Source: Eubacteriales bacterium
GTDB lineage: Bacteria > Bacillota > Clostridia > Oscillospirales > CAG-272
Reading direction: 5' to 3'
Assembly: GCA_045597265.1 (NCBI GenBank)
Contig: JAZODX010000210.1
Coordinates: forward strand, 1 to 57,606
DNA length: 57,606 bases
Position 1 is the first letter of the stretch, and the number at the start of each line of letters is the position of its first letter. Below, one piece after another: positions 43,743-55,337 of the stretch. The notes beneath the pieces are model-generated. The model was not told where the DNA came from. It saw only the letters and a list, made by a program, of their open reading frames with translations, and did not search any database. A program made the translations under genes and the position numbers.

Positions 43743-43771
43743 TTGATTTATTCGCGTTTTTGTGGTACAAT
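43743..43771 (+). promoter_or_regulatory. sigma-A type promoter
   Basis: TTGATT, 17 nt, TACAAT, with a TG-extended -10. Confidence 0.5.
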
Positions 43772-43815: not shown

Positions 43816-44739
43816 ATGAATTTGCTGCATATGAAATATGCGGTTGAGGTTGCAAGACTCGGTTCACTGAACAAAGCAGCGGAAGCACTGATGATAGCAC
43901 AACCGAATATCAGCCGTTCCATCAAAGAGCTTGAGGCAGATCTTGGAATTACGATATTCCAGCGAAGCGCGAAGGGCATGGTTTTGACGCCCGACGGTGA
44001 GGAGTTTATCGATTATGCGCGTGACATTCTTCACCGTATCGATAAGATCGAGCAGTCCTATCGGGATGGATCGCATAAGAAGCGTAGATTTTCGATCTCG
44101 GTTCCCCGCGCGTGCTATATCTCTGCCGCGCTGGCGGAATTTTCAAAAACCATCGGAGATGCTCCCATAGAAATATACTACAAGGAAACCAACGCCAAAA
44201 GGACCATAAAAAACCTTCTCGAAAACGAATACAGGCTTGGGATCATTCGTTACTCGGATAACTATGATAAATATTACAAGGATTTGCTTGAGGAAAAGGG
44301 ACTTTCCTACGAGCTTGTGGCGGAGTTCTCCTATGTTCTTCTGATGAGTAAGGACAATCCTCTTGCCGGGAAGGAAACGATTACTTACGACGATCTTTCC
44401 GATTATATTGAAATTGCGCACGCAGATCCTTACGTTCCTACGCTCTCTATGTCCAAGGTATTCCGCGAGGAGCTGCCCGACAAGGTGGATCAGAGAATAT
44501 TCGTCTTTGAACGAGCAAGTCAGTTCGATTTGATTTCCGAAAATCCCCAAACCTTTATGTGGGTATCCCCTGCCTCACAGCAGATCCTTGACAGATATGA
44601 TCTCGTTCAACGCGTGTGTGAGGGCAATAAAAAGGTATACAGGGATGTCCTTATCTATCGCAAAGGCTATAAGCTTACCGGACTTGACAAAGATTTTATT
44701 ACCGCGCTTTGCAACGCAAGGAGAAGGTTTATTCATTAA
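43816..44739 (+). CDS. LysR family transcriptional regulator
   Basis: MNLLHMKYAVEVARLGSLNKAAEALMIAQPNISRSIKELE HTH domain. AAAGGAGG RBS. Confidence 0.85.
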   Translation: MNLLHMKYAVEVARLGSLNKAAEALMIAQPNISRSIKELEADLGITIFQRSAKGMVLTPDGEEFIDYARDILHRIDKIEQSYRDGSHKKRRFSISVPRACYISAALAEFSKTIGDAPIEIYYKETNAKRTIKNLLENEYRLGIIRYSDNYDKYYKDLLEEKGLSYELVAEFSYVLLMSKDNPLAGKETITYDDLSDYIEIAHADPYVPTLSMSKVFREELPDKVDQRIFVFERASQFDLISENPQTFMWVSPASQQILDRYDLVQRVCEGNKKVYRDVLIYRKGYKLTGLDKDFITALCNARRRFIH

Positions 44740-44818: not shown

Positions 44819-44905
44819 GTCACCCCTCAACCGACGCTCCAAACAAAATAATTTTATAGAAAAGCATAAGCAGTTTCATCAAAGTGATGAAACTGCTTGT
44901 TTTTT
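44819..44905 (+). ncRNA. candidate small RNA (~85 nt) with a C-rich anti-Shine-Dalgarno-like motif
   Basis: Bounded by the promoter at 44784-44812 and the terminator at 44869-44906. The 5' region contains CACCCCUCAACC. Confidence 0.25.
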
Positions 44906-44906: not shown

Positions 44907-44971
44907 TTGATAAGGTGATTATCGATTACAGTTATATCGATACGCATAATACCGATATAACATTTTAATTA

Positions 44972-45000
44972 TTCCCAGGGAGTCGATATCGTGTTAAAAT
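44972..45000 (+). promoter_or_regulatory. promoter of the rex-adhE unit
   Basis: TTCCCA, 17 nt, TAAAAT, with a TG-extended -10. Confidence 0.45.
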
Positions 45001-45008
45001 ATTAACAG
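44991..45008 (+). promoter_or_regulatory. Rex operator (clostridial type)
   Basis: GTGTTAAAATATTAACAG contains the palindrome TGTTAA-N4-TTAACA and overlaps the -10 element. Confidence 0.6.
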
Positions 45009-45027
45009 TACAACGAGGAGGTGGCAA

Positions 45028-45660
45028 ATGAACGGATATTCCATCCCCAAGGCAACACTCGGTCGGCTTCCGCAGTATCTTGAGATTTTGAGAAACTTAC
45101 CCGAAACGCGCCGCACAATATCAGCAACCGCAATTGCTAAGGCGTTATCGCTCGGCGATGTTCAGGTTCGCAAGGACCTTGCGGCTGTCAGCGGTGCAGG
45201 CAAGCCAAAGATCGGCTATGAAACCGATAAATTGATTGCCGACATTGAAAGTCATCTCGGGTACGAGAGGCTGACAAATGCAGTTCTCGTCGGTGCGGGA
45301 AAACTCGGAAGAGCGCTTCTCGATTATGACGGCTTCGAGAATTTCGGCGTGAGGATCGTTGCAGGCTTTGACTGTAACGAAACGGTATTGGGGAAAGGCA
45401 AAGAAGATATACTGCCAATCAGAGATATCGGTGCTTTCTGTCGTGAATACAACGTAAAGCTTGGTGTTATCACGGTAGGGCGAGGCTCGGCGCAGGCGGT
45501 TTGCGACAAGCTGGTGGAAAGCGGCATTGAAGCAATATGGAATTTCGCCCCCGTTGCCTTAAAAGTGCCAAGCGGCGTGCTTCTCAAGCAGGAAAATTTA
45601 GCGTTGTCTCTCGCATATCTCAATAATCAAATCAGTAAACCATATCAGGAGGACAGGTAA
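45028..45660 (+). CDS. rex: redox-sensing transcriptional repressor Rex
   Basis: IPKATLGRLPQYLEILRNL wHTH domain, and a VLVGAGKLGRAL Rossmann NADH-binding site. GAGGAGG RBS. Confidence 0.9.
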   Translation: MNGYSIPKATLGRLPQYLEILRNLPETRRTISATAIAKALSLGDVQVRKDLAAVSGAGKPKIGYETDKLIADIESHLGYERLTNAVLVGAGKLGRALLDYDGFENFGVRIVAGFDCNETVLGKGKEDILPIRDIGAFCREYNVKLGVITVGRGSAQAVCDKLVESGIEAIWNFAPVALKVPSGVLLKQENLALSLAYLNNQISKPYQEDR

Positions 45661-45661
45661 A

Positions 45662-48358
45662 ATGGAAAGCAAAACCTACGAAATTGTTGACAGTGTGGAA
45701 GCACTTCACGCTGCGATCGCTCGTGTAAGAGCGGCGCAGAAGATTTTTTCGACCTACACGCAAGAACAGGTTGACAAGATTTTCCTCAGCGCGGCCTCTG
45801 CTGCAGACAAGGCAAGAATCTCTCTTGCAAAGCTTGCGGTTGAGGAAACCGGAATGGGCATCGTAGAGGACAAAGTAATCAAGAACCACTACGCTGCTGA
45901 GTACATTTACAACGCTTACAAGGACACCAAGACCTGCGGTGTGATTGAAGAGGACAAGGCTTTCGGCATCAGAAAGATTGCAGAGCCTATCGGTGTTGTT
46001 GCTGCCGTTATCCCTACGACCAATCCCACCTCCACCGCAATCTTTAAGTGTCTGCTTGCCCTCAAGACGCGTAACGCCATGATAATCAGTCCTCACCCCA
46101 GAGCAAAGAATTCCACCATTGCGGCTGCAAAGCTCATTCTTGAAGCAGCGGTAGCAGCAGGTGCGCCCGAAGGTATCATCGATTGGATCGACGTGCCTTC
46201 TCTCGATATGACGGGGACTCTGATGCGGGAAGCGGATATCATTCTTGCGACGGGTGGTCCGGGAATGGTCAAGGCTGCATATTCCTCCGGCAAGCCCGCT
46301 CTCGGTGTCGGTGCAGGCAACACGCCTGCGATTATCGATGAAACCGCCGATATCCTCCTTGCCGTTAACTCGATTATTCACTCCAAGACCTTTGATAACG
46401 GAATGATCTGCGCTTCCGAGCAGTCTGTTATCGTTCTGGAAAGCATCTACGATATCGTTAAGGCGGAGTTTGCGGCACGCGGATGCTATTTTCTGAGTCC
46501 GATGGAAACAGAAAAGGTTCGTAAGACGATTATCATCAACGGTGCACTCAACGCAAAGATCGTCGGTCAGAAGGCAGTTAAGATTGCCGAGCTTGCAGGC
46601 GTAAGCGTTCCTGCCGGCACCAAGATTCTTATTGGCGAGGTTGAGAGCGTTGAACTTTCCGAGGAATTTGCACACGAGAAGCTTTCTCCCGTACTTGCCA
46701 TGTATAAGGCCGGAACCTTTGCAGAAGCGTTGGATAAGGCAGATACGCTTGTTGAGGACGGCGGCTTCGGTCACACTGCCTCTCTCTACATCAACGAGAT
46801 CACGGAAAAGGAAAAGCTTGCTGCTTATGAGGCAAGGATGAGAACTTGCCGCATTCTCGTTAACACGCCCTCCGCGCACGGCGGTATCGGTGATCTTTAC
46901 AACTTTAAGCTTGCTCCCTCGCTCACGCTCGGATGCGGCTCCTGGGGTGGAAATAGCGTATCTGAAAACGTAGGGGTAAAGCATCTTTTAAACATCAAAA
47001 CGGTCGCTGAGAGGAGAGAAAATATGCTTTGGTTCAGAACACCCGAGAAGGTTTATATAAAAAAGGGCTGCCTCCCCGTAGCGCTCGATGAGCTGAGAAG
47101 CGTCAGAGGCGCAAAGAAAGCGTTCATCGTAACCGATACCTTCTTGTATCAGAATGGATATACCAAGCCGATCGCCGACAAGCTTGACGAAATGGGCGTT
47201 CAGCACACCACGTTCTGGAACGTACAGCCCGATCCCACCCTTGCGAACGCGACTGAGGGAGCAGCGCAAATGCGCGCGTTCCAGCCCGATACCATTATTG
47301 CACTCGGCGGGGGTTCGGCAATGGACGCGGCAAAGATCATGTGGGTACTCTACGAGCATCCTGAAGCAGACTTTATGGATATGGCAATGCGCTTTATCGA
47401 TATTCGCAAGAGAATCTACACCTTCCCAAGGATGGGAGAGAAGGCATACTTCATCGCAATCCCCACCTCTGCAGGTACGGGGTCTGAGGTAACTCCTTTC
47501 GCGGTTATCACCGATGAAAAGACGGGTGTTAAATATCCTCTCGCCGACTATGCGCTTCTTCCCAACATGGCAATTATCGACACCGACTTCCATATGTCCG
47601 CGCCCCGCGGTCTGACGGCGGCTTCGGGTATTGACGCGGTTACGCACGCAATTGAAGCGTACGCCGCCATGCTTGCAACCGACTATACCGACGGCCTTGC
47701 CCTGCGCGCGCTCAAGATGATCTTCGAGTATCTCCCGCGTGCCTACGATAACGGCCAGACCGACGTTGAAGCGCGTGAGAAGATGGCAAACGCTGCGACG
47801 ATGGCGGGCATGGCATTCGCTAACGCATTCCTCGGCGTATGTCACTCTATGGCACATAAGCTGGGTGCATTCCACCATCTTCCCCACGGCGTTGCAAACG
47901 CCCTTATGATCGAGGAGGTTCTCCGCTTCAACGCTGCTGAGGCTCCTGCAAAGATGGGCACCTTCTCGCAGTACGACCATCCGCATACGCTTGCCCGTTA
48001 TGCTGAGATCGCTGATTATCTCGGTATTAAGGGGGCAAACGATGAGGAGAAGCTTGAGGGGCTTATCAAGGCAATCAACGACCTTAAGACTCGCGTTGGA
48101 ATCAAGGAGACTATCCGGGACTACGGCATCGATGAGGCCGACTTCCTTGCACGCCTTGACGATATGGTAGAGCAGGCGTTCGACGACCAGTGCACGGGTG
48201 CGAATCCTCGTTATCCTCTTATGCGCGAGATCAAGCAGATGTACCTCAACGCTTACTACGGCAATCACTTCGTTGAAGAGAGAATGCCTGCTGCCGACCT
48301 CGGTGATGCAAAGGCCGATCCCATCAAGGCACCCTATCGCAAGGGAAAAAAGGTGTAA
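45662..48358 (+). CDS. adhE: bifunctional acetaldehyde-CoA / alcohol dehydrogenase
   Basis: 898 aa. N-terminal ALDH domain (catalytic Cys in FDNGMICASEQ), C-terminal iron-ADH domain (GGGSAMDAAK, HSMAHKLG). Confidence 0.95.
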   Translation: MESKTYEIVDSVEALHAAIARVRAAQKIFSTYTQEQVDKIFLSAASAADKARISLAKLAVEETGMGIVEDKVIKNHYAAEYIYNAYKDTKTCGVIEEDKAFGIRKIAEPIGVVAAVIPTTNPTSTAIFKCLLALKTRNAMIISPHPRAKNSTIAAAKLILEAAVAAGAPEGIIDWIDVPSLDMTGTLMREADIILATGGPGMVKAAYSSGKPALGVGAGNTPAIIDETADILLAVNSIIHSKTFDNGMICASEQSVIVLESIYDIVKAEFAARGCYFLSPMETEKVRKTIIINGALNAKIVGQKAVKIAELAGVSVPAGTKILIGEVESVELSEEFAHEKLSPVLAMYKAGTFAEALDKADTLVEDGGFGHTASLYINEITEKEKLAAYEARMRTCRILVNTPSAHGGIGDLYNFKLAPSLTLGCGSWGGNSVSENVGVKHLLNIKTVAERRENMLWFRTPEKVYIKKGCLPVALDELRSVRGAKKAFIVTDTFLYQNGYTKPIADKLDEMGVQHTTFWNVQPDPTLANATEGAAQMRAFQPDTIIALGGGSAMDAAKIMWVLYEHPEADFMDMAMRFIDIRKRIYTFPRMGEKAYFIAIPTSAGTGSEVTPFAVITDEKTGVKYPLADYALLPNMAIIDTDFHMSAPRGLTAASGIDAVTHAIEAYAAMLATDYTDGLALRALKMIFEYLPRAYDNGQTDVEAREKMANAATMAGMAFANAFLGVCHSMAHKLGAFHHLPHGVANALMIEEVLRFNAAEAPAKMGTFSQYDHPHTLARYAEIADYLGIKGANDEEKLEGLIKAINDLKTRVGIKETIRDYGIDEADFLARLDDMVEQAFDDQCTGANPRYPLMREIKQMYLNAYYGNHFVEERMPAADLGDAKADPIKAPYRKGKKV

Positions 48359-48376
48359 TTTAAGGAGGAAAAACAG

Positions 48377-49126
48377 ATGAAACTTGATAGAGTAATTGCA
48401 GTAAGAAATAACAAGACGATCTACCGCGACGGCGACAGAGCAATCAAGGTTTTTCATACGGGGTATTCTAAGGCTGACGTGTTGAATGAAGCACTCAATC
48501 AGGCAAGGATCGAAGAAACCGGATTGAATATTCCCAAGGTGCTTGAGGTTACGGTGATTGACGGTAAGTGGGCAATCGTTTCCGAGTTCATTAAAGGAAA
48601 AACTTTAGCACAGCTTATGGAAGAAAATCCCGAGCAGAAAACGGAGTATATCGAGCTTCTCGTTGATCTTCAGATGGGGGTTCACCGGGAGACCTGTCCC
48701 CTCTTGAACAAGCTGAAGGACAAGATGAGCCGCAAGATCGCAGCAACCGAGCTTGACGCTACCACGCGCTACGATCTTCATACCCGTCTCGAGGGGATGC
48801 CTAAGCACAACAAGGTGTGCCATGGCGATTTCAATCCCTCCAATGTCATTATCGCCGAGAACGGTCTTCCTTACGTTCTTGACTGGTCTCACGCAACGCA
48901 GGGCAACGCTTCCGCTGACGTTGCACGTACCTATCTGCTCTTCTGGCTGAACGGAGATATTTCCGGTGCGGAGTATTATCTCGACACCTTCTGCCAAAAG
49001 AGCAATACCGCAAAGCAGTATGTGCAGAAGTGGATGCCCATCGTTGCTGCATCGCAGTCAGTTAAGGGGAACGAAAAGGAGCGCGAGTTCCTGATGAGTT
49101 GGGTCGGCGTTGTCGATTACCAATAA
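48377..49126 (+). CDS. APH/choline-kinase-fold phosphotransferase (putative protein kinase)
   Basis: HGDFNPSNVI catalytic loop and VLDWSHA (DxS/D metal loop). AAGGAGG RBS. Confidence 0.7.
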   Translation: MKLDRVIAVRNNKTIYRDGDRAIKVFHTGYSKADVLNEALNQARIEETGLNIPKVLEVTVIDGKWAIVSEFIKGKTLAQLMEENPEQKTEYIELLVDLQMGVHRETCPLLNKLKDKMSRKIAATELDATTRYDLHTRLEGMPKHNKVCHGDFNPSNVIIAENGLPYVLDWSHATQGNASADVARTYLLFWLNGDISGAEYYLDTFCQKSNTAKQYVQKWMPIVAASQSVKGNEKEREFLMSWVGVVDYQ

Positions 49127-49144
49127 TTCGATTTCAAAATTATC

Positions 49145-49171
49145 GCTTGATGCGGCAAGTCCGCATCAAGC
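49145..49171 (+). other. intra-cluster hairpin (attenuator or processing site candidate)
   Basis: 11-bp perfect stem GCTTGATGCGG / CCGCATCAAGC with no U-tract. Confidence 0.4.
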
Positions 49172-49204
49172 ACCCATATTTATACATTAAGAGAGGATAT
49201 AGTT

Positions 49205-49447
49205 ATGATTAAGATTACGGTTTGTATCGGCAGCTCCTGCCATATCAAGGGCTCTCGTCAGGTAGTGGAGCAGCTTCAGTATTTGATCGCTGAAAACAAT
49301 CTCGGTGATAAGGTAGAGCTTGGCGGAACCTTCTGCATGGGCAAGTGTCAGCAGGGTGTATGTGTCACGGTAAATGATTCCTTCCATTCGGTTACACCCG
49401 AGAGCGTAGGAGAGTTCTTCGCTGAAGAAGTGCTCGCAAGGGTGTAA
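49205..49447 (+). CDS. thioredoxin-like [2Fe-2S] ferredoxin (NuoE/HydC-like), copy 1
   Basis: Cys pattern C7-x4-C12 ... C44-x3-C48 (CIGSSCH ... CMGKC). GAGAGGA RBS. Confidence 0.7.
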   Translation: MIKITVCIGSSCHIKGSRQVVEQLQYLIAENNLGDKVELGGTFCMGKCQQGVCVTVNDSFHSVTPESVGEFFAEEVLARV

Positions 49448-49451
49448 AAAA

Positions 49452-49715
49452 ATGTTGTTCGTTCAGGTTTGTGTTGGTTCGTCCTGCCACCTCAAGGGCT
49501 CTCAGGAGATCGTAGCCCTTTTTGAAAAAGCCGTGGAGGAACATCATATCGAGGATGAGGTCGTGCTTTCCGGCAGCTTTTGTATCGGAAAGTGCAACCG
49601 GGTCGGGGTTACCGTACAGGTAAACGATGATGTGCACGTGGGTGTGACGAGAGAGAATTTCAGAGAATTTTTCAAGAAGAATATACTTGATACGATTGAA
49701 ACCGAAAGGAAGTGA
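49452..49715 (+). CDS. thioredoxin-like [2Fe-2S] ferredoxin (NuoE/HydC-like), copy 2
   Basis: CVGSSCH ... CIGKC. Colinear paralogue of the preceding gene. Confidence 0.7.
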   Translation: MLFVQVCVGSSCHLKGSQEIVALFEKAVEEHHIEDEVVLSGSFCIGKCNRVGVTVQVNDDVHVGVTRENFREFFKKNILDTIETERK

Positions 49716-49720
49716 CGATT

Positions 49721-51400
49721 ATGGCAAATTGCTTAACGCTGAAAAAATCCAACTGCAAAAACTGCTATAAATGTATCCGTCACTGTCCCGTAAAGGCGAT
49801 TCGCTTTTCGGGAAACCAAGCACATATCATCGGCAATGAGTGTATCTTGTGCGGTCATTGTTTCGTCGTCTGCCCGCAGAACGCAAAGGAAATCGTAGAC
49901 GGGACCGAGAAGGCGAGAGTCTTGCTGCAGAGCGGAGATCCCGTCGTTGTCAGTCTTGCGCCCTCGTTTATTGCGAACTATGAAGGCGTAGGAATAGAGT
50001 CTATGCGCCGAGCACTCTGCAGGCTTGGCTTTTTCGACGTTGAAGAGACGGCAATCGGTGCAACCATCGTTAAGACCGAATACGAGCGGATGCTGCGTGA
50101 GGAAGAAAGGGATATTATCATCAGCTCGTGCTGTCACTCCGTCAATTTACTCATACAAAAGCATTTTCCTTCGATGCTTGAATATCTTGCCGACGTGATG
50201 TCGCCTATGCAGGCGCACTGTGCGGACATCAAGAAAAGAATGCCGAACGCAAAGACGGTATTTATCGGGCCGTGCGTTGCCAAAAAGGATGAAGCTGAAC
50301 ACTACGAGGGAATCGTGGATGCCGTTCTTACGTTCGAAGAGCTTACGAATTGGTTGAAATCCGAGCACATTGAGCTTGAACAGAAAACGGACAAAACGCC
50401 CGAAAGTCGTGCACGCTTCTTCCCGACAACGGGAGGCGTACTGAAAACGATGGCGCAGAACGCACCCGGATATACGTACGTCGCACTTGATGGGGTTGAG
50501 AACTGTATCGCCGCACTTAAGGATATCGAGAGTGGGAAGATCCATAAATGCTTCATTGAAATGTCTGCCTGCGTTGGCAGCTGTATTGGCGGTCCCGTCA
50601 TGGAAAAATATCATAGTACATCGCCGATTAAGGATTACGTAACCGTGGCCGGTTATGCCGGTGAGCACGACTTTGCTGTCGAACAGCCTGCTCCGATGAA
50701 TCTGAAAAAGCATTTTTCCATGATTGAGAAAAGGCTGCAGACACCTTCGGAAAATGAGATTATGACCGTTCTTCGTCAGATGGGTAAGTTCAAGCCTGCC
50801 GACGAGCTTAACTGCGGATCCTGCGGATACAATTCCTGCCGTGAGAAAGCGATCGCGATTATTCAGAGCAAGGCTGAAATATCCATGTGTCTGCCCTTTC
50901 TCAAGGACAAGGCGGAAAGCTTCTCGGATACCATTGTCAAGAATACGCCCAACGGACTTATCGTGCTTAACGAGAATCTTGAGGTTCAGCAGATCAATAC
51001 TGCGGCAAGGAAAATTATGAATATCCGTGCAGCATCCGACGTGCTCGGCGAGAGTGTCGTCCGCATTCTCGATCCTGCCGTGTTTGTTCAGGTCAAAAAC
51101 AGCGGAAGAACGGTAAGAGATCTGCGTACTTATCTTGCCGAATATAAAAAATACGTGGAGCAAACCGTGGTTTACGATCCCGATTCCCGTATGCTGATCG
51201 GCATTATGCGTGATATTACCGACGAGGAAGCCGATAGAGAGAAGAAGGCAAGAATCAATAAGCAGACGGTTGAGGTTGCCGACAGCGTTGTCGAAAAGCA
51301 GATGAGAATCGTTCAGGAGATCGCATCCTTGCTCGGTGAAACCGCAGCAGAAACCAAGATTGCTCTGACGAAATTGAAGGAGTCGATCGGCGATGAATGA
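49721..51400 (+). CDS. hydS: HydS-type putative sensory [FeFe]-hydrogenase (2x[4Fe-4S] domain, H-cluster domain, Cys4 motif, PAS domain)
   Basis: CKNCYKCIRHCP and CILCGHCFVVCP. H-cluster motifs SSCCHS, GPCVAKK and EMSACVGSCIGGP. CGSCGYNSC...C motif. C-terminal PAS-like NGLIVLNENLEVQQINTAARKIMN. Confidence 0.8.
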   Translation: MANCLTLKKSNCKNCYKCIRHCPVKAIRFSGNQAHIIGNECILCGHCFVVCPQNAKEIVDGTEKARVLLQSGDPVVVSLAPSFIANYEGVGIESMRRALCRLGFFDVEETAIGATIVKTEYERMLREEERDIIISSCCHSVNLLIQKHFPSMLEYLADVMSPMQAHCADIKKRMPNAKTVFIGPCVAKKDEAEHYEGIVDAVLTFEELTNWLKSEHIELEQKTDKTPESRARFFPTTGGVLKTMAQNAPGYTYVALDGVENCIAALKDIESGKIHKCFIEMSACVGSCIGGPVMEKYHSTSPIKDYVTVAGYAGEHDFAVEQPAPMNLKKHFSMIEKRLQTPSENEIMTVLRQMGKFKPADELNCGSCGYNSCREKAIAIIQSKAEISMCLPFLKDKAESFSDTIVKNTPNGLIVLNENLEVQQINTAARKIMNIRAASDVLGESVVRILDPAVFVQVKNSGRTVRDLRTYLAEYKKYVEQTVVYDPDSRMLIGIMRDITDEEADREKKARINKQTVEVADSVVEKQMRIVQEIASLLGETAAETKIALTKLKESIGDE

Positions 51401-52565
51401 TTTGTGTGCAGACATCGGATATAAAAGCATCAATCACGTCGGCGAAGAGCTTTGCGGCGACCACGTGGACGTCGTAGAGGAAAATGAGAATTCTACCGTA
51501 ATCGTGCTTGCAGACGGCCTTGGGTCGGGTGTTAAGGCAAGTATTTTGTCTACATTGACCGCCAAGATCATCTCAACGATGATGGCGGCAGGGCTTCCCA
51601 TTGAGGAATGCGTGTCTACGATTGCCGCAACCCTGCCCGTATGCTCCGTGCGAGGTGTGGCATATTCTACGTTTACGATTATTCATTTGTTGAATAACCA
51701 GATCGCCGAGATCATTCAGTACGATAATCCTCACGTGATCGTGATAAGAGATTACGTTGTTTACGAGTATCCCAAAACAGAAATGAGCATCGGCGGCAAA
51801 AAAATATTCAAATCCACGATTAAGCTGCAAGAGGATGACGTATTCATCGCCATGAGCGACGGATGTCCTCATGCCGGTATGGGCGGGAAATACAACTTTG
51901 GTTGGAAACGAGAGGATATCGCCGAGTATATGCTGGCACTCGTTGCAGGCGGGTATACGGCAAAGAATCTGTCTACCATGCTGGTTGATGAATGTGATAA
52001 GCTGTACGATCATAAGCCCGGAGACGATACGACCGCCTGCGTCGTAAAGGTACGCAGGAGAGAGCCTATGAACATTCTGTTCGGTCCTCCTTCAAACCGT
52101 GACGACGCAAACCGAATGATGTCGCTGTTCTTCTCCAAGGAGGGCAAGCACATCATCTGCGGCGGTACGACCTCCTCGATTGCGGCAAAATATCTGGGCA
52201 AAAAGGTTGAGGTAAGCCTGAGCTTTGAGCGGAGCGATATTCCTCCCATCGCCCATATCGAAGGTGTGGATCTCGTGACTGAGGGCGTGATTACCATGAA
52301 TAAGGTTATTCAGTACGCCAAGGATTATCTTGGCGCTAACGCGTGTTATGAGGAGTGGAGCTTCAAGAAGGACGGAGCGTCCCTGATCAGCCGACTTCTC
52401 TTTGAGGAAGCAACCGACATCAACTTTTACGTTGGCAGAGCGGTGAATCCCGCTCACCAAAACCCGGATCTTCCGATCAATTTTAATATTAAAATGAATC
52501 TTGTGGAAGAGCTTTCCCTCTGCTTAAAGAAAATGGGAAAGCGAATTAAAGTAAGTTATTTTTGA
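51393..52565 (+). CDS. SpoIIE/PP2C family serine phosphatase
   Basis: GEELCGDHVDVVE...VIVLADGLGSGVKASILS and GDDTT motifs. Overlaps the hydS stop by 8 nt. Confidence 0.8.
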   Translation: MNDLCADIGYKSINHVGEELCGDHVDVVEENENSTVIVLADGLGSGVKASILSTLTAKIISTMMAAGLPIEECVSTIAATLPVCSVRGVAYSTFTIIHLLNNQIAEIIQYDNPHVIVIRDYVVYEYPKTEMSIGGKKIFKSTIKLQEDDVFIAMSDGCPHAGMGGKYNFGWKREDIAEYMLALVAGGYTAKNLSTMLVDECDKLYDHKPGDDTTACVVKVRRREPMNILFGPPSNRDDANRMMSLFFSKEGKHIICGGTTSSIAAKYLGKKVEVSLSFERSDIPPIAHIEGVDLVTEGVITMNKVIQYAKDYLGANACYEEWSFKKDGASLISRLLFEEATDINFYVGRAVNPAHQNPDLPINFNIKMNLVEELSLCLKKMGKRIKVSYF

Positions 52566-52578
52566 GGATTTAAAGGAT

Positions 52579-53526
52579 ATGAAAAAAAAGGTAACGATTA
52601 TTGGGGCCGGAGCGGTTGGCGCCACGACGGCATTTGCATTGCTGGCAAGAAACGCGGCTTCGGAGGTTGTGTTGATCGATATCAATACCGAAAAGGCGCT
52701 TGGCGAAGCGTTGGATATCAAGCAGGCGACCCCCTTTATTGACAACTGCGATATCTATGCGGGAAGCTACCGCGACGCCGTTGATTCGGACGTTGTTGTC
52801 ATTACGTCGGGCGTGGGAAGAAAACCCGGACAAACTCGATTGGAGCTGGTACAGACCAACGTAGGTATTGTGCGGAGTATATCCGAGGAGATCGTAAAAT
52901 ACGCACCGAACGCAATTTATATTCTCGTGGCAAATCCCGTCGATATCCTGACCTACGCATTCTTGAAATACACGGGACTCCCCAAAAATCAGGTCATGGG
53001 CACGGGTACCGTTCTCGATACCATCCGTCTGCGCACGCGGCTTGCGGAGATCTATAACGTCAATAAGCAGCAGGTTCATGCAAACATCCTTGGGGAGCAC
53101 GGAGATACGTCCTTTGTGGCCTGGTCCACAGCGACCATCGCGGGAATACCCGTAGATGAATATAATGCGTCCATTGCAACGCCCTACCATATTCCCACCG
53201 AATATCAGCGGGAGGATGTCGAAACCTACGTCAGGAAATCGGGGGGGAAGATCATCTCCCGCAAAGGCTGCACCGTTTACGGGATCGGAATGTCCACGAC
53301 GCATATTGTGAAGACGTTGGATGGAAACGCAGAAACGGCAATGACGGTTTCTTCCCTGCATGAAGGGGAATACGGTATTTCCGACGTATGCCTGAGCTCG
53401 CTGTCCCTGGTTGATTCTACGGGAGTCAGATCGATCATCACCCAAAAGCTGAGCGATGACGAAATACAAAAGCTTTATGCATCGGCAGAAGCGCTGAAGG
53501 CAGTGATTCGAACGGCGGGATTATAA
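52579..53526 (+). CDS. ldh: L-lactate dehydrogenase
   Basis: IIGAGAVG, GVGRKPGQTRLEL, GTGTVLDTIRLR and LGEHGD (catalytic His). Confidence 0.9.
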   Translation: MKKKVTIIGAGAVGATTAFALLARNAASEVVLIDINTEKALGEALDIKQATPFIDNCDIYAGSYRDAVDSDVVVITSGVGRKPGQTRLELVQTNVGIVRSISEEIVKYAPNAIYILVANPVDILTYAFLKYTGLPKNQVMGTGTVLDTIRLRTRLAEIYNVNKQQVHANILGEHGDTSFVAWSTATIAGIPVDEYNASIATPYHIPTEYQREDVETYVRKSGGKIISRKGCTVYGIGMSTTHIVKTLDGNAETAMTVSSLHEGEYGISDVCLSSLSLVDSTGVRSIITQKLSDDEIQKLYASAEALKAVIRTAGL

Positions 53527-53535
53527 GGAGAAGCC

Positions 53536-54963
53536 ATGAGAAGATTTGATACGAAGGTACAGCATTTGAAGTACAAGGTTCTCCGTGAGGTTGCTCGCCT
53601 TGCGTGGGAGGATAAGCTGCTTGAGAATATTATGGATATTCCCAAGAGCCTCGTTCCCGGGAATGAACCCACGATGCGTTGCTGTGTCTATAAGGAACGT
53701 GCAATTCTCGGTGAGCGTGTGAAGCTCGCTATGGGCGGGGATAAAAATAATCCCAATATCATCGAGGTTATTGAAATCGCTTGCGACGAGTGTCCCGTTG
53801 GCGGCTACGAGGTTACCAATGCCTGCCGCGGATGCCTTGCGCATCGATGTGAGGACGTTTGTAAGTTCGGTGCAATCTCTTTTGATCACAATCACGTTGC
53901 ACATATAGACAAATCCAAATGCAAAGAATGCGGTGCGTGCGCAAAGGTTTGTCCCTATACAGCAATCGTCAGCCGCAAGCGTCCGTGTCAGAACGCCTGT
54001 AAGGTCAAGGCAATTTCCATGAATGACGAAAAGGCGGCGTGTATCGACAACGCCAAATGCATTCAGTGCGGAGCGTGTGTCTATCAGTGTCCCTTCGGTG
54101 CAATCATGGACAAATCATATATGGTGAACGCCATTGATATTCTCAAAAAGAGTGAGAGAAACACGGGCGGCAGCTATAAGGTTTACGCCGCTGTTGCGCC
54201 CTCCATTTCGAGCCAATTCTCTTATGCCAAGCTCGGCCAGGTGGTAACGGGGCTTAAGAAGCTCGGTTTCCACGACGTGATTGAAGCAGCACTCGGCGCG
54301 GATATGGTTGCCATGGAAGAAGCAAAAGAGCTTTCCGAAAAAGGGCTTCTGACCAGCTCATGCTGCCCTGCATTCGTGCAGTACATCAGGTCGGCGTTCC
54401 CGAATCTCGCAGAGCATATTTCGCACAATATGTCACCGATGGCAGTCCTTGCGAAATACATCAAGGAAACGACGCCTAACGCAAAGGTGATCTTCATCGG
54501 CCCGTGCACCGCGAAAAAGGCGGAAGCACAGCTCGAGGCGGTTAAGCCTTATGTAGATACCGTCCTTACCTTCGAGGAGCTTCAGGCGCTCTTTGACAGC
54601 CGCGACATCGAGATCGAAACGCTTGAGGAAGGCGTTCTTGACAACGCTTCCTACTTCGGCCGAATCTTTGCCCGCAGCGGCGGCCTTACCGATGCGGCAA
54701 CACAGGCGATGAAGGAGCAGGGGCTTGACTTTGAAATCAAACCCGTGGTCTGCGATGGGATCGAGGCTTGCCGCATGGCGCTTCTTAAGCTGAACAAGGG
54801 CGTGCTTGACGGAAACTTTATCGAAGGAATGGCCTGCGTTGGCGGTTGTATTGGCGGAGCGGGCTGTCTGACGCACGGCGAAAAGAACAAAACCGACGTG
54901 GATAAGTATGGCCGCGAAGCGCTTGAAAAGACCATAGGAGATGCGATTTCCGTTTTGAAGTAA
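53536..54963 (+). CDS. hydA: [FeFe]-hydrogenase catalytic subunit (monomeric type with N-terminal Fe-S domains)
   Basis: Canonical H-cluster motifs TSSCCPAF, GPCTAKK and EGMACVGGCIGGAG, plus several CxxCxxCxxxC ferredoxin motifs. AAGGAGA RBS. Confidence 0.85.
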   Translation: MRRFDTKVQHLKYKVLREVARLAWEDKLLENIMDIPKSLVPGNEPTMRCCVYKERAILGERVKLAMGGDKNNPNIIEVIEIACDECPVGGYEVTNACRGCLAHRCEDVCKFGAISFDHNHVAHIDKSKCKECGACAKVCPYTAIVSRKRPCQNACKVKAISMNDEKAACIDNAKCIQCGACVYQCPFGAIMDKSYMVNAIDILKKSERNTGGSYKVYAAVAPSISSQFSYAKLGQVVTGLKKLGFHDVIEAALGADMVAMEEAKELSEKGLLTSSCCPAFVQYIRSAFPNLAEHISHNMSPMAVLAKYIKETTPNAKVIFIGPCTAKKAEAQLEAVKPYVDTVLTFEELQALFDSRDIEIETLEEGVLDNASYFGRIFARSGGLTDAATQAMKEQGLDFEIKPVVCDGIEACRMALLKLNKGVLDGNFIEGMACVGGCIGGAGCLTHGEKNKTDVDKYGREALEKTIGDAISVLK

Positions 54964-55013
54964 TGCAACAGCGCCGCACGCCGTTTTCTGCATTTCGATA
55001 GTCAAAAAACCAC

Positions 55014-55050
55014 CGGATGAACGAACCGGTGGTTTTGTTTATCCCTAATA
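55014..55050 (+). terminator. rho-independent terminator closing the rex...hydA unit
   Basis: 11-bp stem AAAACCACCGG / CCGGTGGTTTT followed by GTTT. Confidence 0.75.
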
Positions 55051-55190
55051 AAAGACGAGTGTGATTTTGATCAAAACAAACGAAATTGCAGAATTTACAT
55101 GAAAAATCAATCTGCGAATTCGTGCACCTGAATATATTCAATGAAGGTTTTCATGCTTTTGGACACCCATTTGTTTTTATGATAAATTGC

Positions 55191-55219
55191 TTGTGATTTG
55201 CGGCGAGATATGTTATAAT
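55191..55219 (+). promoter_or_regulatory. promoter of the GNAT-radical SAM operon (paralogue of the promoter at 56655)
   Basis: TTGTGA, 17 nt, TATAAT, with a TG-extended -10. Lies within a block shared with 56651-56704. Confidence 0.55.
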
Positions 55220-55337
55220 AAAAAACGAAATCAAAGGCAGCGACGGAAGGTCGAGCTTGTGGTCTGCCAATGACCTGGCCATAAAGTGAGAGGGCTTTTG
55301 TGGGTATTTGACGGCAGAAAATTATCGAGGTGCATCT

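Follow-up and report, generated by a model that had tools for sequence, protein, structure and literature searches.

The closest described relative of the nine-gene cluster analyzed here, which occupies positions 45028–54963 of a 57.6-kb contig (JAZODX010000210.1) from an uncultured gut Clostridia genome, is the eight-gene cluster Rumal_3400–3407 on the megaplasmid pRUMAL01 of Ruminococcus albus 7. The whole contig of 57,606 nucleotides is hereafter referred to as the window. As relayed in later papers, the R. albus cluster was described as a transcription unit with HydS as the putative H2 sensor (Zheng et al., 2014, J Bacteriol 196:3840; via PMC5707799, PMC10838669), and, again as relayed, signalling by the PAS domain to a neighbouring Ser/Thr kinase was proposed (Zheng et al., 2014; via PMC5707799). 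In co-culture with the H2 consumer Wolinella succinogenes, the "putative eight-gene cluster" was the part of the R. albus transcriptome that changed most (Greening et al., 2019; PMC6776011). Rumal_3400–3407 were down 109–130-fold (PMC6776011 and supplement), the supplement listing −130 for Rumal_3400 (Rex), −121 for Rumal_3401 (AdhE), −114 for Rumal_3402 (aminoglycoside phosphotransferase), and −109 for Rumal_3403. The same supplement gives the HydDB classes [FeFe] group C3 for Rumal_3405 and [FeFe] group B for Rumal_3407. The R. albus cluster has become the standard example of an H2-dependent switch between acetate plus H2 and ethanol.

A second described system is hfsABCD of Thermoanaerobacterium. 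Deletion of hfsA or hfsB raises the adhE transcript and the ethanol yield, and deletion of hfsC or hfsD diverts flux towards lactate (PMC5707799; PMC11837493). Two experiments suggested in a preliminary description of the window locus have therefore been published for its relatives: the comparison of mono-culture with co-culture under differing H2 for the R. albus orthologue, with the 109–130-fold drop given above (PMC6776011), and the deletion of hydS for its homologue hfsB, along with hfsA, hfsC, and hfsD, in Thermoanaerobacterium (PMC5707799).

The preliminary description had presented the locus as an undescribed regulatory system. This could not be upheld, as eight of the genes are already present in order on R. 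albus 7 pRUMAL01 and were described in 2014. The locus is probably (a probability of roughly 0.65) the orthologue of the 'high-H2' fermentation operon of pRUMAL01 with ldh added, and it would act through the steps outlined under the proposed mechanism.

Gene Content of the Cluster and Its Counterpart on pRUMAL01

The pRUMAL01 cluster was found by tblastn of HydS against plasmid records. Its genes, rex-aad(adhE)-phosphotransferase-fdx-fdx-hydS-SpoIIE phosphatase-hydA2, have the same order and strand as those of the window, and the encoded proteins share 49% (Rex), 54% (fdx2), 62% (LysR), 75% (AdhE), and 71–78% (others) identity with the window proteins. A LysR gene upstream and a dyad block before rex are also common to both. 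The R. albus cluster differs in that it has no ldh, which in the window lies between the phosphatase and the hydrogenase and is the sole extra gene. Further, the Rex box of R. albus is degenerate, whereas that of the window is clear, and the gap between the phosphotransferase gene and fdx1 is ∼20 nt as against 78 nt with a hairpin in the window. The R. albus cluster resides on the megaplasmid of a cultured strain and the window cluster on the contig of an uncultured organism.

ORF (open reading frame) calling in the window gave nine ORFs, all on the + strand and with coordinates as in the preliminary description, and protein families were assigned by Pfam and NCBIfam profile scans. The first gene, rex (45028–45660; NF003994, 234 bits versus a cut-off of 130), is followed by adhE, encoding the bifunctional acetaldehyde-CoA/alcohol dehydrogenase (45662–48358; NF010378, 1382 bits versus a cut-off of 951), and by the gene of an APH/ChoK-fold phosphotransferase (48377–49126; PF01636, with weaker RIO1 similarity), which had earlier been called a kinase. 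Two genes for thioredoxin-like [2Fe-2S] proteins come next, fdx1 (49205–49447; PF01257; 80 residues, of the HydC/NuoE C-terminal type with CX4C...CX3C) and fdx2 (49452–49715; PF01257; 87 residues). They are followed by hydS (from GTG at 49712 or ATG at 49721 to 51400; 562 residues; Fe_hyd_lg_C, FeS domain, and PAS in Pfam), the gene of a SpoIIE/RsbU-type PP2C of 390 residues (51393–52565; PF07228), ldh for L-lactate dehydrogenase (52579–53526; NF000824, 350 bits versus 339; TIGR01771, 334 versus 304), and the gene of a group B monomeric [FeFe] hydrogenase of 475 residues (53536–54963). The intergenic gaps are 1, 18, 78, 4, 5 (with the HydS ATG start; −4 with GTG), −8, 13, and 9 nt. The unit is closed by an intrinsic terminator (55006–55044, + strand) with an 11-bp GC-rich stem, AAAACCACCGG...CCGGUGGUUUU (hairpin 55006–55036), followed by GUUUAU.

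The nine same-strand genes, their spacing, the promoter with a Rex operator, and the terminator were thus all present as first described, and the evidence supported the view that the locus is one coherent fermentation cluster for redox and H2 balance, with close gene packing and a promoter of the Rex type. The close packing and the single promoter and terminator, with an internal hairpin in addition, are the indications that bear on a possible co-transcription of the nine genes.

Distribution of the Cluster in Related Loci

Eighty loci with close HydS relatives (76–94% identity) were fetched out of at least 582 relatives detected. All were from gut or rumen metagenome-assembled genomes (MAGs), the nearest coming from ruminant and human guts and bearing the labels Clostridia, Eubacteriales, Acutalibacteraceae, or Ruminococcus. 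The nearest HydS in the species-representative genome collection showed 94% identity (locus L003). The window proteins were mapped onto these loci by tblastn, and the counts refer to 54 loci for the downstream side of hydS, 44 loci for the upstream side (at least 5.6 kb of room), and 34 loci for both sides.

Downstream of hydS, the PP2C gene was followed directly by the hydrogenase gene in 45 of the 54 loci and by ldh and then the hydrogenase gene in seven, the other two being without hydrogenase. Three further loci carried ldh just after the hydrogenase gene, and in two it was placed divergently upstream. The embedded ldh, to which the preliminary description had drawn attention, is a valid new feature and a recurring minority variant (7/54); a literature search for ldh inside hydS clusters retrieved nothing relevant. 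An ldh gene is absent from the closest relative, L003 (94%), and present in the second closest, L004 (92%), which suggests that the insertion is readily gained and lost.

The upstream side was more varied. The combination of lysR, adhE, and the phosphotransferase gene was observed in 17 of the 44 loci, and with rex in addition in seven. The remaining loci had lysR with the phosphotransferase gene (three), lysR and rex with the phosphotransferase gene (one), lysR only (two), rex only (two), or none of these genes (12). In the loci without lysR, rex, and adhE, a search of the upstream neighbours for another regulator turned up nothing but unrelated housekeeping genes.

Among the loci examined, adhE, the phosphotransferase gene, and ldh were found together in the window alone. 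With room on both sides, the phosphotransferase gene without ldh was present in 23 of the 34 loci, ldh without the phosphotransferase gene in three, and both in none. The ldh loci with sufficient room were mostly of the type rex-fdx-fdx-hydS-PP2C-ldh-hydrogenase (L034, L040, L062, and L068), and the window looks like a union of two common cluster types. Taken over all loci, fdx-(fdx)-hydS-PP2C-hydrogenase B forms an invariant core, and the variable parts are lysR, rex, adhE, and the phosphotransferase gene upstream, and an insertion of either ldh or an Fe-only alcohol dehydrogenase (Fe-ADH) with NfnAB.

Control Region: LysR Gene, Dyad Block, Promoter, and Rex Box

The unit is preceded by a gene for a LysR-type transcriptional regulator (lysR; 43817–44739, + strand; Pfam HTH_1 and LysR_substrate), which lies outside the coordinates covered by the preliminary description. 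The lysR ORF opens with GTG at 43762, and the probable start is the ATG at 43817, which is preceded by AGGAGG. All matches of LysR in NCBIfam were under the cut-off, the best being CidR, GltC, and AlsR. Orthologues with 55–87% identity are located directly upstream and on the same strand in ∼30 related loci, including R. albus pRUMAL01 (62%), and lysR is present upstream in all the adhE-containing loci (24/24). An intrinsic terminator behind lysR (44866–44900, + strand; 13–16 bp stem and a T run; −24 kcal/mol, z −6.2) separates it from the nine-gene unit.

A 31-bp dyad block, TTATATCGATACGCATAATACCGATATAACA (TTATATCG-N13-CGATATAA; 44932–44962, + strand), stops 9 nt short of the −35 element and is kept in register in 23 promoters. 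A position weight matrix (PWM) of the block, trained without the window, gave a single match in the whole window with a score of 19.2, as compared to 14.6 for the best of 20 shuffles. It also located the block in loci outside the training set, i.e., L001 (R. albus), L009 (twice), L013, L016, L021, and L030, and gave no strong match in the loci without lysR. In L009 (2987–7488) and L016 (973–4598), an extra unit encoding the Fe-only alcohol dehydrogenase and NfnA/NfnB-like proteins is present between lysR and rex; that of L009, a locus without adhE, also has a short-chain dehydrogenase/reductase. The dyad block is present twice in both these loci, with one copy before each unit, indicating that it marks reductant-sink promoters and not the 3′ end of lysR. 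LysR-type activators usually bind just upstream of a weak −35 element, which is where the block lies in this promoter. From its co-occurrence with lysR and its position, the dyad block is a candidate LysR-binding site.

A broader reading of these observations would regard the fdx-hydS-PP2C-hydrogenase B core as a platform for lineage-specific reductant sinks (adhE, ldh, or Fe-ADH with NfnAB), all transcribed from promoters with the LysR-type dyad block and a Rex box in common, with LysR as the DNA-binding output at which the HydS/PP2C signal, perhaps together with the APH-fold kinase, is merged alongside Rex. This is considered distinctly unlikely; if true, the H2 signalling route would end at a regulator encoded next door.

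The promoter is of the sigma-70 type (44972–45000, + strand), with −35 TTCCCA, a 17-nt spacer, and a TG-extended −10 TAAAAT, and both hexamers are in register across the loci. The Rex operator, GTGTTAAAATATTAACAG (44991–45008, + strand), overlaps the −10 element and has two mismatches to TTGTTAA-N4-TTAACAA. In the window alone, the occurrence of a Rex box is at chance level, with one match versus 1.46 expected. Among 83 loci (1.23 Mb), 36 Rex boxes with at most two mismatches were found, 26 of them no more than 300 nt upstream of the gene that opens the cluster, and the box is in register with the conserved −35 and −10 hexamers. Owing to this clustering before the first gene across the loci, the Rex operator is taken to be real and conserved. 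It is kept also in loci where rex is absent from the cluster, and those promoters are probably served by Rex encoded elsewhere. The rex gene itself is the least conserved (49% identity to R. albus versus 71–78% for its neighbours) and the most often absent, being present in 10 of the 44 loci.

Conservation of the Rex box in 26 loci would agree with an explanation in which Rex alone gives the H2 response, H2 acting on the NADH/NAD+ ratio and the latter on Rex. HydS would then not be a transcriptional sensor; HydS, the [2Fe-2S] proteins, PP2C, and the group B hydrogenase would form one enzyme module, in which HydS/PP2C tunes the hydrogenase post-translationally in its activity or direction, e.g., in H2 cycling as proposed for Hfs. 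The R. albus cluster argues against it, since that unit is regulated ∼110–130-fold without a good Rex box at its promoter. The degenerate box and the strong H2 regulation in R. albus together suggest that Rex may not be the main switch.

HydS and the Adjacent PP2C Phosphatase

HydS consists of an N-terminal 2x[4Fe-4S] region, the H-domain, a Cys-rich FeS domain, a PAS domain, and a C-terminal helical tail. The H-domain matched PF02906 at 9e-51, and the segments SSCCH, GPCVAKKDE, and EMSACVGSC aligned to the L1, L2, and L3 motifs of the solved enzymes, showing that the four H-cluster cysteines are present. The PAS domain (PF00989; residues 406–502; 28.6 bits versus a cut-off of 22.6) is preceded by the FeS domain PF04060. 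HydS is 71% identical to Rumal_3405 of R. albus (tblastn) and, from the HydDB class of this orthologue and the adjacent PP2C, is a putative sensory [FeFe] hydrogenase of group C3 (phosphatase-linked). The SSCCH motif covers residues 135–139 (window 50114–50128) and has a Cys where CpI carries its proton-relay residue, Cys299.

Sensory enzymes typically differ from CpI at C299, M353, and M497 in the second sphere of the H-cluster. In the window HydS, M353 and M497 are replaced by G and S, respectively, and the Cys at C299 is kept. A Cys at this position is retained in 17% of sensory sequences (PMC10055695), and its retention suggests that HydS may keep more catalytic turnover than the HydS of Thermotoga maritima. 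A HydS that could turn over H2 is also what would be expected if Rex alone responded to H2 and HydS belonged to an enzyme module.

The hydS stop and the PP2C start overlap by 8 nt without exception (78/78 loci). Such constancy speaks for coupled translation of the two proteins and for their assembly in a complex of fixed ratio. The PP2C comprises a SpoIIE-type domain (residues 1–223) and an alpha/beta C-terminal domain (residues 225–390; window 52065–52565). Among 61 diverse homologues, the aspartates D23, D41, D149, and D212 were invariant, and D156 and D211 were nearly so. A profile search of PDB retrieved SpoIIE at 2.5e-19 as well as RsbX, and the AlphaFold2 (AF2) model (pLDDT 91) had SpoIIE as the top Foldseek match (5.6e-14). 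At E below 1e-30, this large two-domain family comprises 519 representative clusters, almost all with a length of ∼390 residues. The C-terminal domain of ∼165 residues, modelled with confidence, had no Pfam family in a scan of the 61 homologues, two members of which reached NBD_C at 9e-4; sequence and profile searches of PDB with it gave only a faint SIS match (3trj, E 0.25–0.4), and the Foldseek matches of the full model were dominated by the PP2C domain. The preliminary description had stated that the HydS/PP2C signalling route is unresolved, and a recent paper agrees, giving the HydS signalling mechanism as 'still not known' as of 2026 (PMC13277313).

The idea of a single enzyme module under Rex draws further on the constant overlap of hydS with the PP2C gene (8 nt) and the close spacing of the latter to the hydrogenase gene, which point to one complex, and on the 12 of 44 loci in which the fdx-fdx-hydS-PP2C-hydrogenase core stands alone beside unrelated housekeeping genes. 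Moreover, when hfsD alone was put back into T. thermosaccharolyticum lacking hfsABCD, the phenotype was that of the hfsB deletion (PMC11837493). On the other hand, deletion of hfsB lifts the adhE transcript 2–3-fold (PMC5707799), which indicates some transcriptional output, and PAS and PP2C domains are typical of signalling proteins and not of catalytic subunits. On balance, Rex as the only route from H2 to transcription, with HydS in an enzyme module, appears rather unlikely.

Group B Hydrogenase and Small [2Fe-2S] Proteins

The last gene had been described as a canonical HydA, which was not borne out by the profile searches. Its product passed the group B1 model TIGR04105 (581 bits versus a cut-off of 450) and failed the group A model TIGR02512 (169 bits versus a cut-off of 406). 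It is 75% identical to Rumal_3407, classed as group B by HydDB, and is the orthologue of R. albus HydA2.

Both small proteins are half-domains of the HydC/NuoE type. The fdx1 gene belongs to the invariant core, and a few of the related loci are without fdx2. In a published model, a group B hydrogenase is paired with a HydC-type protein as a heterodimer (PMC11216029). It is more likely that the small [2Fe-2S] proteins are subunits of the two hydrogenase homologues than that they are free carriers.

APH-Fold Phosphotransferase and Internal Hairpin

The product of the third gene had no match to PF00069 (Pkinase) in Pfam and is not a Hanks-type kinase. Its best PDB matches by sequence were choline kinase and hygromycin kinase, and the AF2 model (pLDDT 75) had APH(3′) enzymes as the top Foldseek matches with a TM score of ∼0.5. 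The catalytic K24, the HGDxxxxN motif (149–156), and the Mg-binding D169 are intact and invariant in the alignment; the R. albus row was left out of one structure-prediction alignment. From its intact catalytic residues, the protein is predicted to be an active kinase-fold enzyme.

The phosphotransferase gene was present in all the adhE loci (24/24) and missing from 16 of the 44 hydS-PP2C loci with enough upstream sequence, and also from Monoglobus. From this pattern, it behaves as a part of the adhE module and not as an obligate partner of PP2C. Of the suggested triad of hydS, PP2C, and the kinase, hydS and PP2C are constantly joined by their overlap (78/78), and the kinase follows adhE instead. 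In the same way, the proposed kinase/phosphatase pair retains its intact catalytic residues as an argument and is weakened by the APH fold, the link to adhE, and the absences from 16 of 44 loci.

The kinase and PP2C had been assigned a central role in the preliminary description, in which HydS senses H2 and a dedicated kinase/PP2C pair within the unit sets the phosphorylation of a regulator, thereby reallocating electrons among ethanol, lactate, and H2. The proposal of Zheng et al. (2014) that PAS acts on an adjacent Ser/Thr kinase, as relayed in PMC5707799, is in line with this model, as are the intact and highly conserved catalytic residues of the kinase fold and the co-regulation of the R. 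albus kinase with its unit (Rumal_3402, down 114-fold). The structural evidence points elsewhere, since the fold is that of APH/choline kinases with APH(3′) enzymes as the top structural matches and without a Pkinase match. The model is also at odds with the distribution, as the kinase tracks adhE (24/24 loci) and not hydS-PP2C. Of the 44 loci with enough room upstream, 16 are without the kinase, as are Monoglobus and the four-gene hfsABCD. In the lineage of the window, a hairpin moreover splits the kinase from the hydS module. In view of these observations, the model is considered very unlikely.

This GC-rich intercistronic hairpin (49144–49172, + strand; −20.1 kcal/mol, z −3.8) has a stem of 11–12 bp and no U tract, and sits in the 78-nt gap between the phosphotransferase gene and fdx1. 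Hairpins with unrelated stem sequences are present at the same position in the nearest relatives of the window (L005, L007, L008, L016, L017, L026, L027, L029, and L056), and in most other loci the gap is only 10–20 nt. As judged from this preservation of structure and not of sequence, the hairpin is a lineage-specific divider of the adhE segment from the sensor/hydrogenase segment and likely acts as a partial terminator or as a transcript-stabilising end. A search of the whole window against Rfam at gathering thresholds gave no match, which places the leader and the intercistronic hairpin outside the known RNA families.

Beyond the terminator of the unit, the region 55160–55330 contains two promoter-like sites and a leader of ∼100 nt without an Rfam match, followed by a GNAT acetyltransferase gene and a radical SAM gene.

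Proposed Mechanism

As an orthologue of the 'high-H2' operon of R. albus, the locus would act as follows. Build-up of H2 would stop the bifurcating hydrogenase from reoxidising NADH. The higher NADH/NAD+ ratio would then release Rex from the operator that overlaps the −10 element, with initiation helped by the LysR activator at the dyad block. Through AdhE and LDH, the electrons of NADH would leave in ethanol and lactate, and those of reduced ferredoxin would be vented as H2 by the group B hydrogenase, which is probably paired with one of the small [2Fe-2S] proteins. HydS, in fixed ratio and in complex with PP2C, would report H2 or the redox state of ferredoxin to the phosphatase by way of the FeS relay, the PAS domain, and the C-terminal helix. 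PP2C would in turn adjust some phosphoprotein, adding a second layer of control that is probably post-translational or directed at the hydrogenase module itself. The internal hairpin would set the adhE segment, with its high expression, apart from the segment for the sensor and the hydrogenase. Given the modular distribution of the core and the result obtained with hfsD alone in T. thermosaccharolyticum, it is a serious alternative that the HydS/PP2C input acts on the hydrogenase module itself and not on transcription.

Several observations weigh against the mechanism as outlined here. The organism is uncultured. The promoter of R. albus is without a good Rex box, though the unit is strongly H2-regulated. 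In T. saccharolyticum, expression of rex rises with ethanol production (PMC5707799), which does not fit simple repression by Rex. The LysR site was assigned solely through co-occurrence and position, and the R. albus lysR is not among the differentially expressed genes (PMC6776011 supplement), which speaks neither for nor against a role of LysR. As for the PP2C, Pfam searches revealed no gene for a STAS protein, an anti-sigma/HATPase_c kinase, or a Hanks kinase among the nine genes or the genes flanking them.

Significance of the Locus

Interspecies H2 transfer shapes the fermentation products and the methane output in the rumen and gut. Clusters of this kind have been described before, and for the R. 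albus orthologue the response to H2 was measured; the window adds a modest variation, namely ldh embedded together with adhE and the kinase gene. The locus by itself therefore adds little, and it is the comparison of 80 loci that yields leads narrowing the search for the signalling output. These leads are the coupling of sensor and phosphatase, the placement of the kinase in the adhE module, the LysR gene with a dyad block at the regulated promoter, and the presence of ldh or Fe-ADH/NfnAB on the same control region. Read from sequence, LysR with its dyad block, the hydS/PP2C overlap, the association of the kinase with adhE, and the interchangeable sinks appear to go beyond the searchable literature. 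The findings are also of relevance to the engineering of ethanol yield in hfs-bearing thermophiles.

Comparison With Other Known Systems

The PP2C of the window resembles the partner-switching phosphatases SpoIIE, RsbU, and RsbP in having a PP2C domain of the SpoIIE subfamily with the metal-binding aspartates kept. It differs from them in the absence of a nearby STAS substrate or anti-sigma kinase, in receiving its proposed input from a separate protein, HydS, and in a unique C-terminal domain of ∼165 residues.

The concept of a low-activity hydrogenase that serves as an H2 sensor, with phospho-signalling to hydrogenase genes, is shared with HoxBC-HoxJ-HoxA of Cupriavidus necator (Ralstonia eutropha). 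The Hox system, however, relies on an unrelated [NiFe] sensor and passes the signal through a histidine kinase to a response regulator whose DNA-binding output is known, and there is no homology between the two (PMC5707799). The HydS of T. maritima, a sensory [FeFe] hydrogenase characterised by spectroscopy (Chongdar, 2018), also has an H-domain and a PAS domain. It carries G177 and S267 at the positions of M353 and M497 of CpI, where the window HydS likewise has Gly and Ser (PMC10055695). It has Ala131 at the C299 position, where the window HydS has Cys, and the partner of the window HydS is a PP2C (HydDB C3).

In the Rex regulons of Clostridia (Clostridium acetobutylicum and Thermoanaerobacter, as cited in PMC5707799), operators of the TTGTTAA-N4-TTAACAA type are likewise placed at the promoters of adhE, ldh, and hydrogenase genes, and NADH relieves the repression. 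Unlike in these regulons, rex of the window heads its own unit, and one operator is placed over three sinks and a hydrogenase sensor module.

The hfsABCD genes of T. saccharolyticum and T. thermosaccharolyticum, with homologues in Clostridium thermocellum (Shaw, 2009; PMC5707799; PMC11837493), encode a PAS-containing [FeFe] hydrogenase (HfsB), a PP2C serine phosphatase (HfsC), and a ferredoxin-linked hydrogenase (HfsD). In the hfs genomes, adhE, rex, and ldh are encoded elsewhere, and descriptions of the hfs operon mention neither a kinase nor a LysR gene. As judged from the published descriptions, hfsBCD corresponds to the hydS-PP2C-hydrogenase core, with HfsD as the presumed orthologue of the window hydrogenase, and the two systems have in common a genetic tie to adhE expression and lactate flux.

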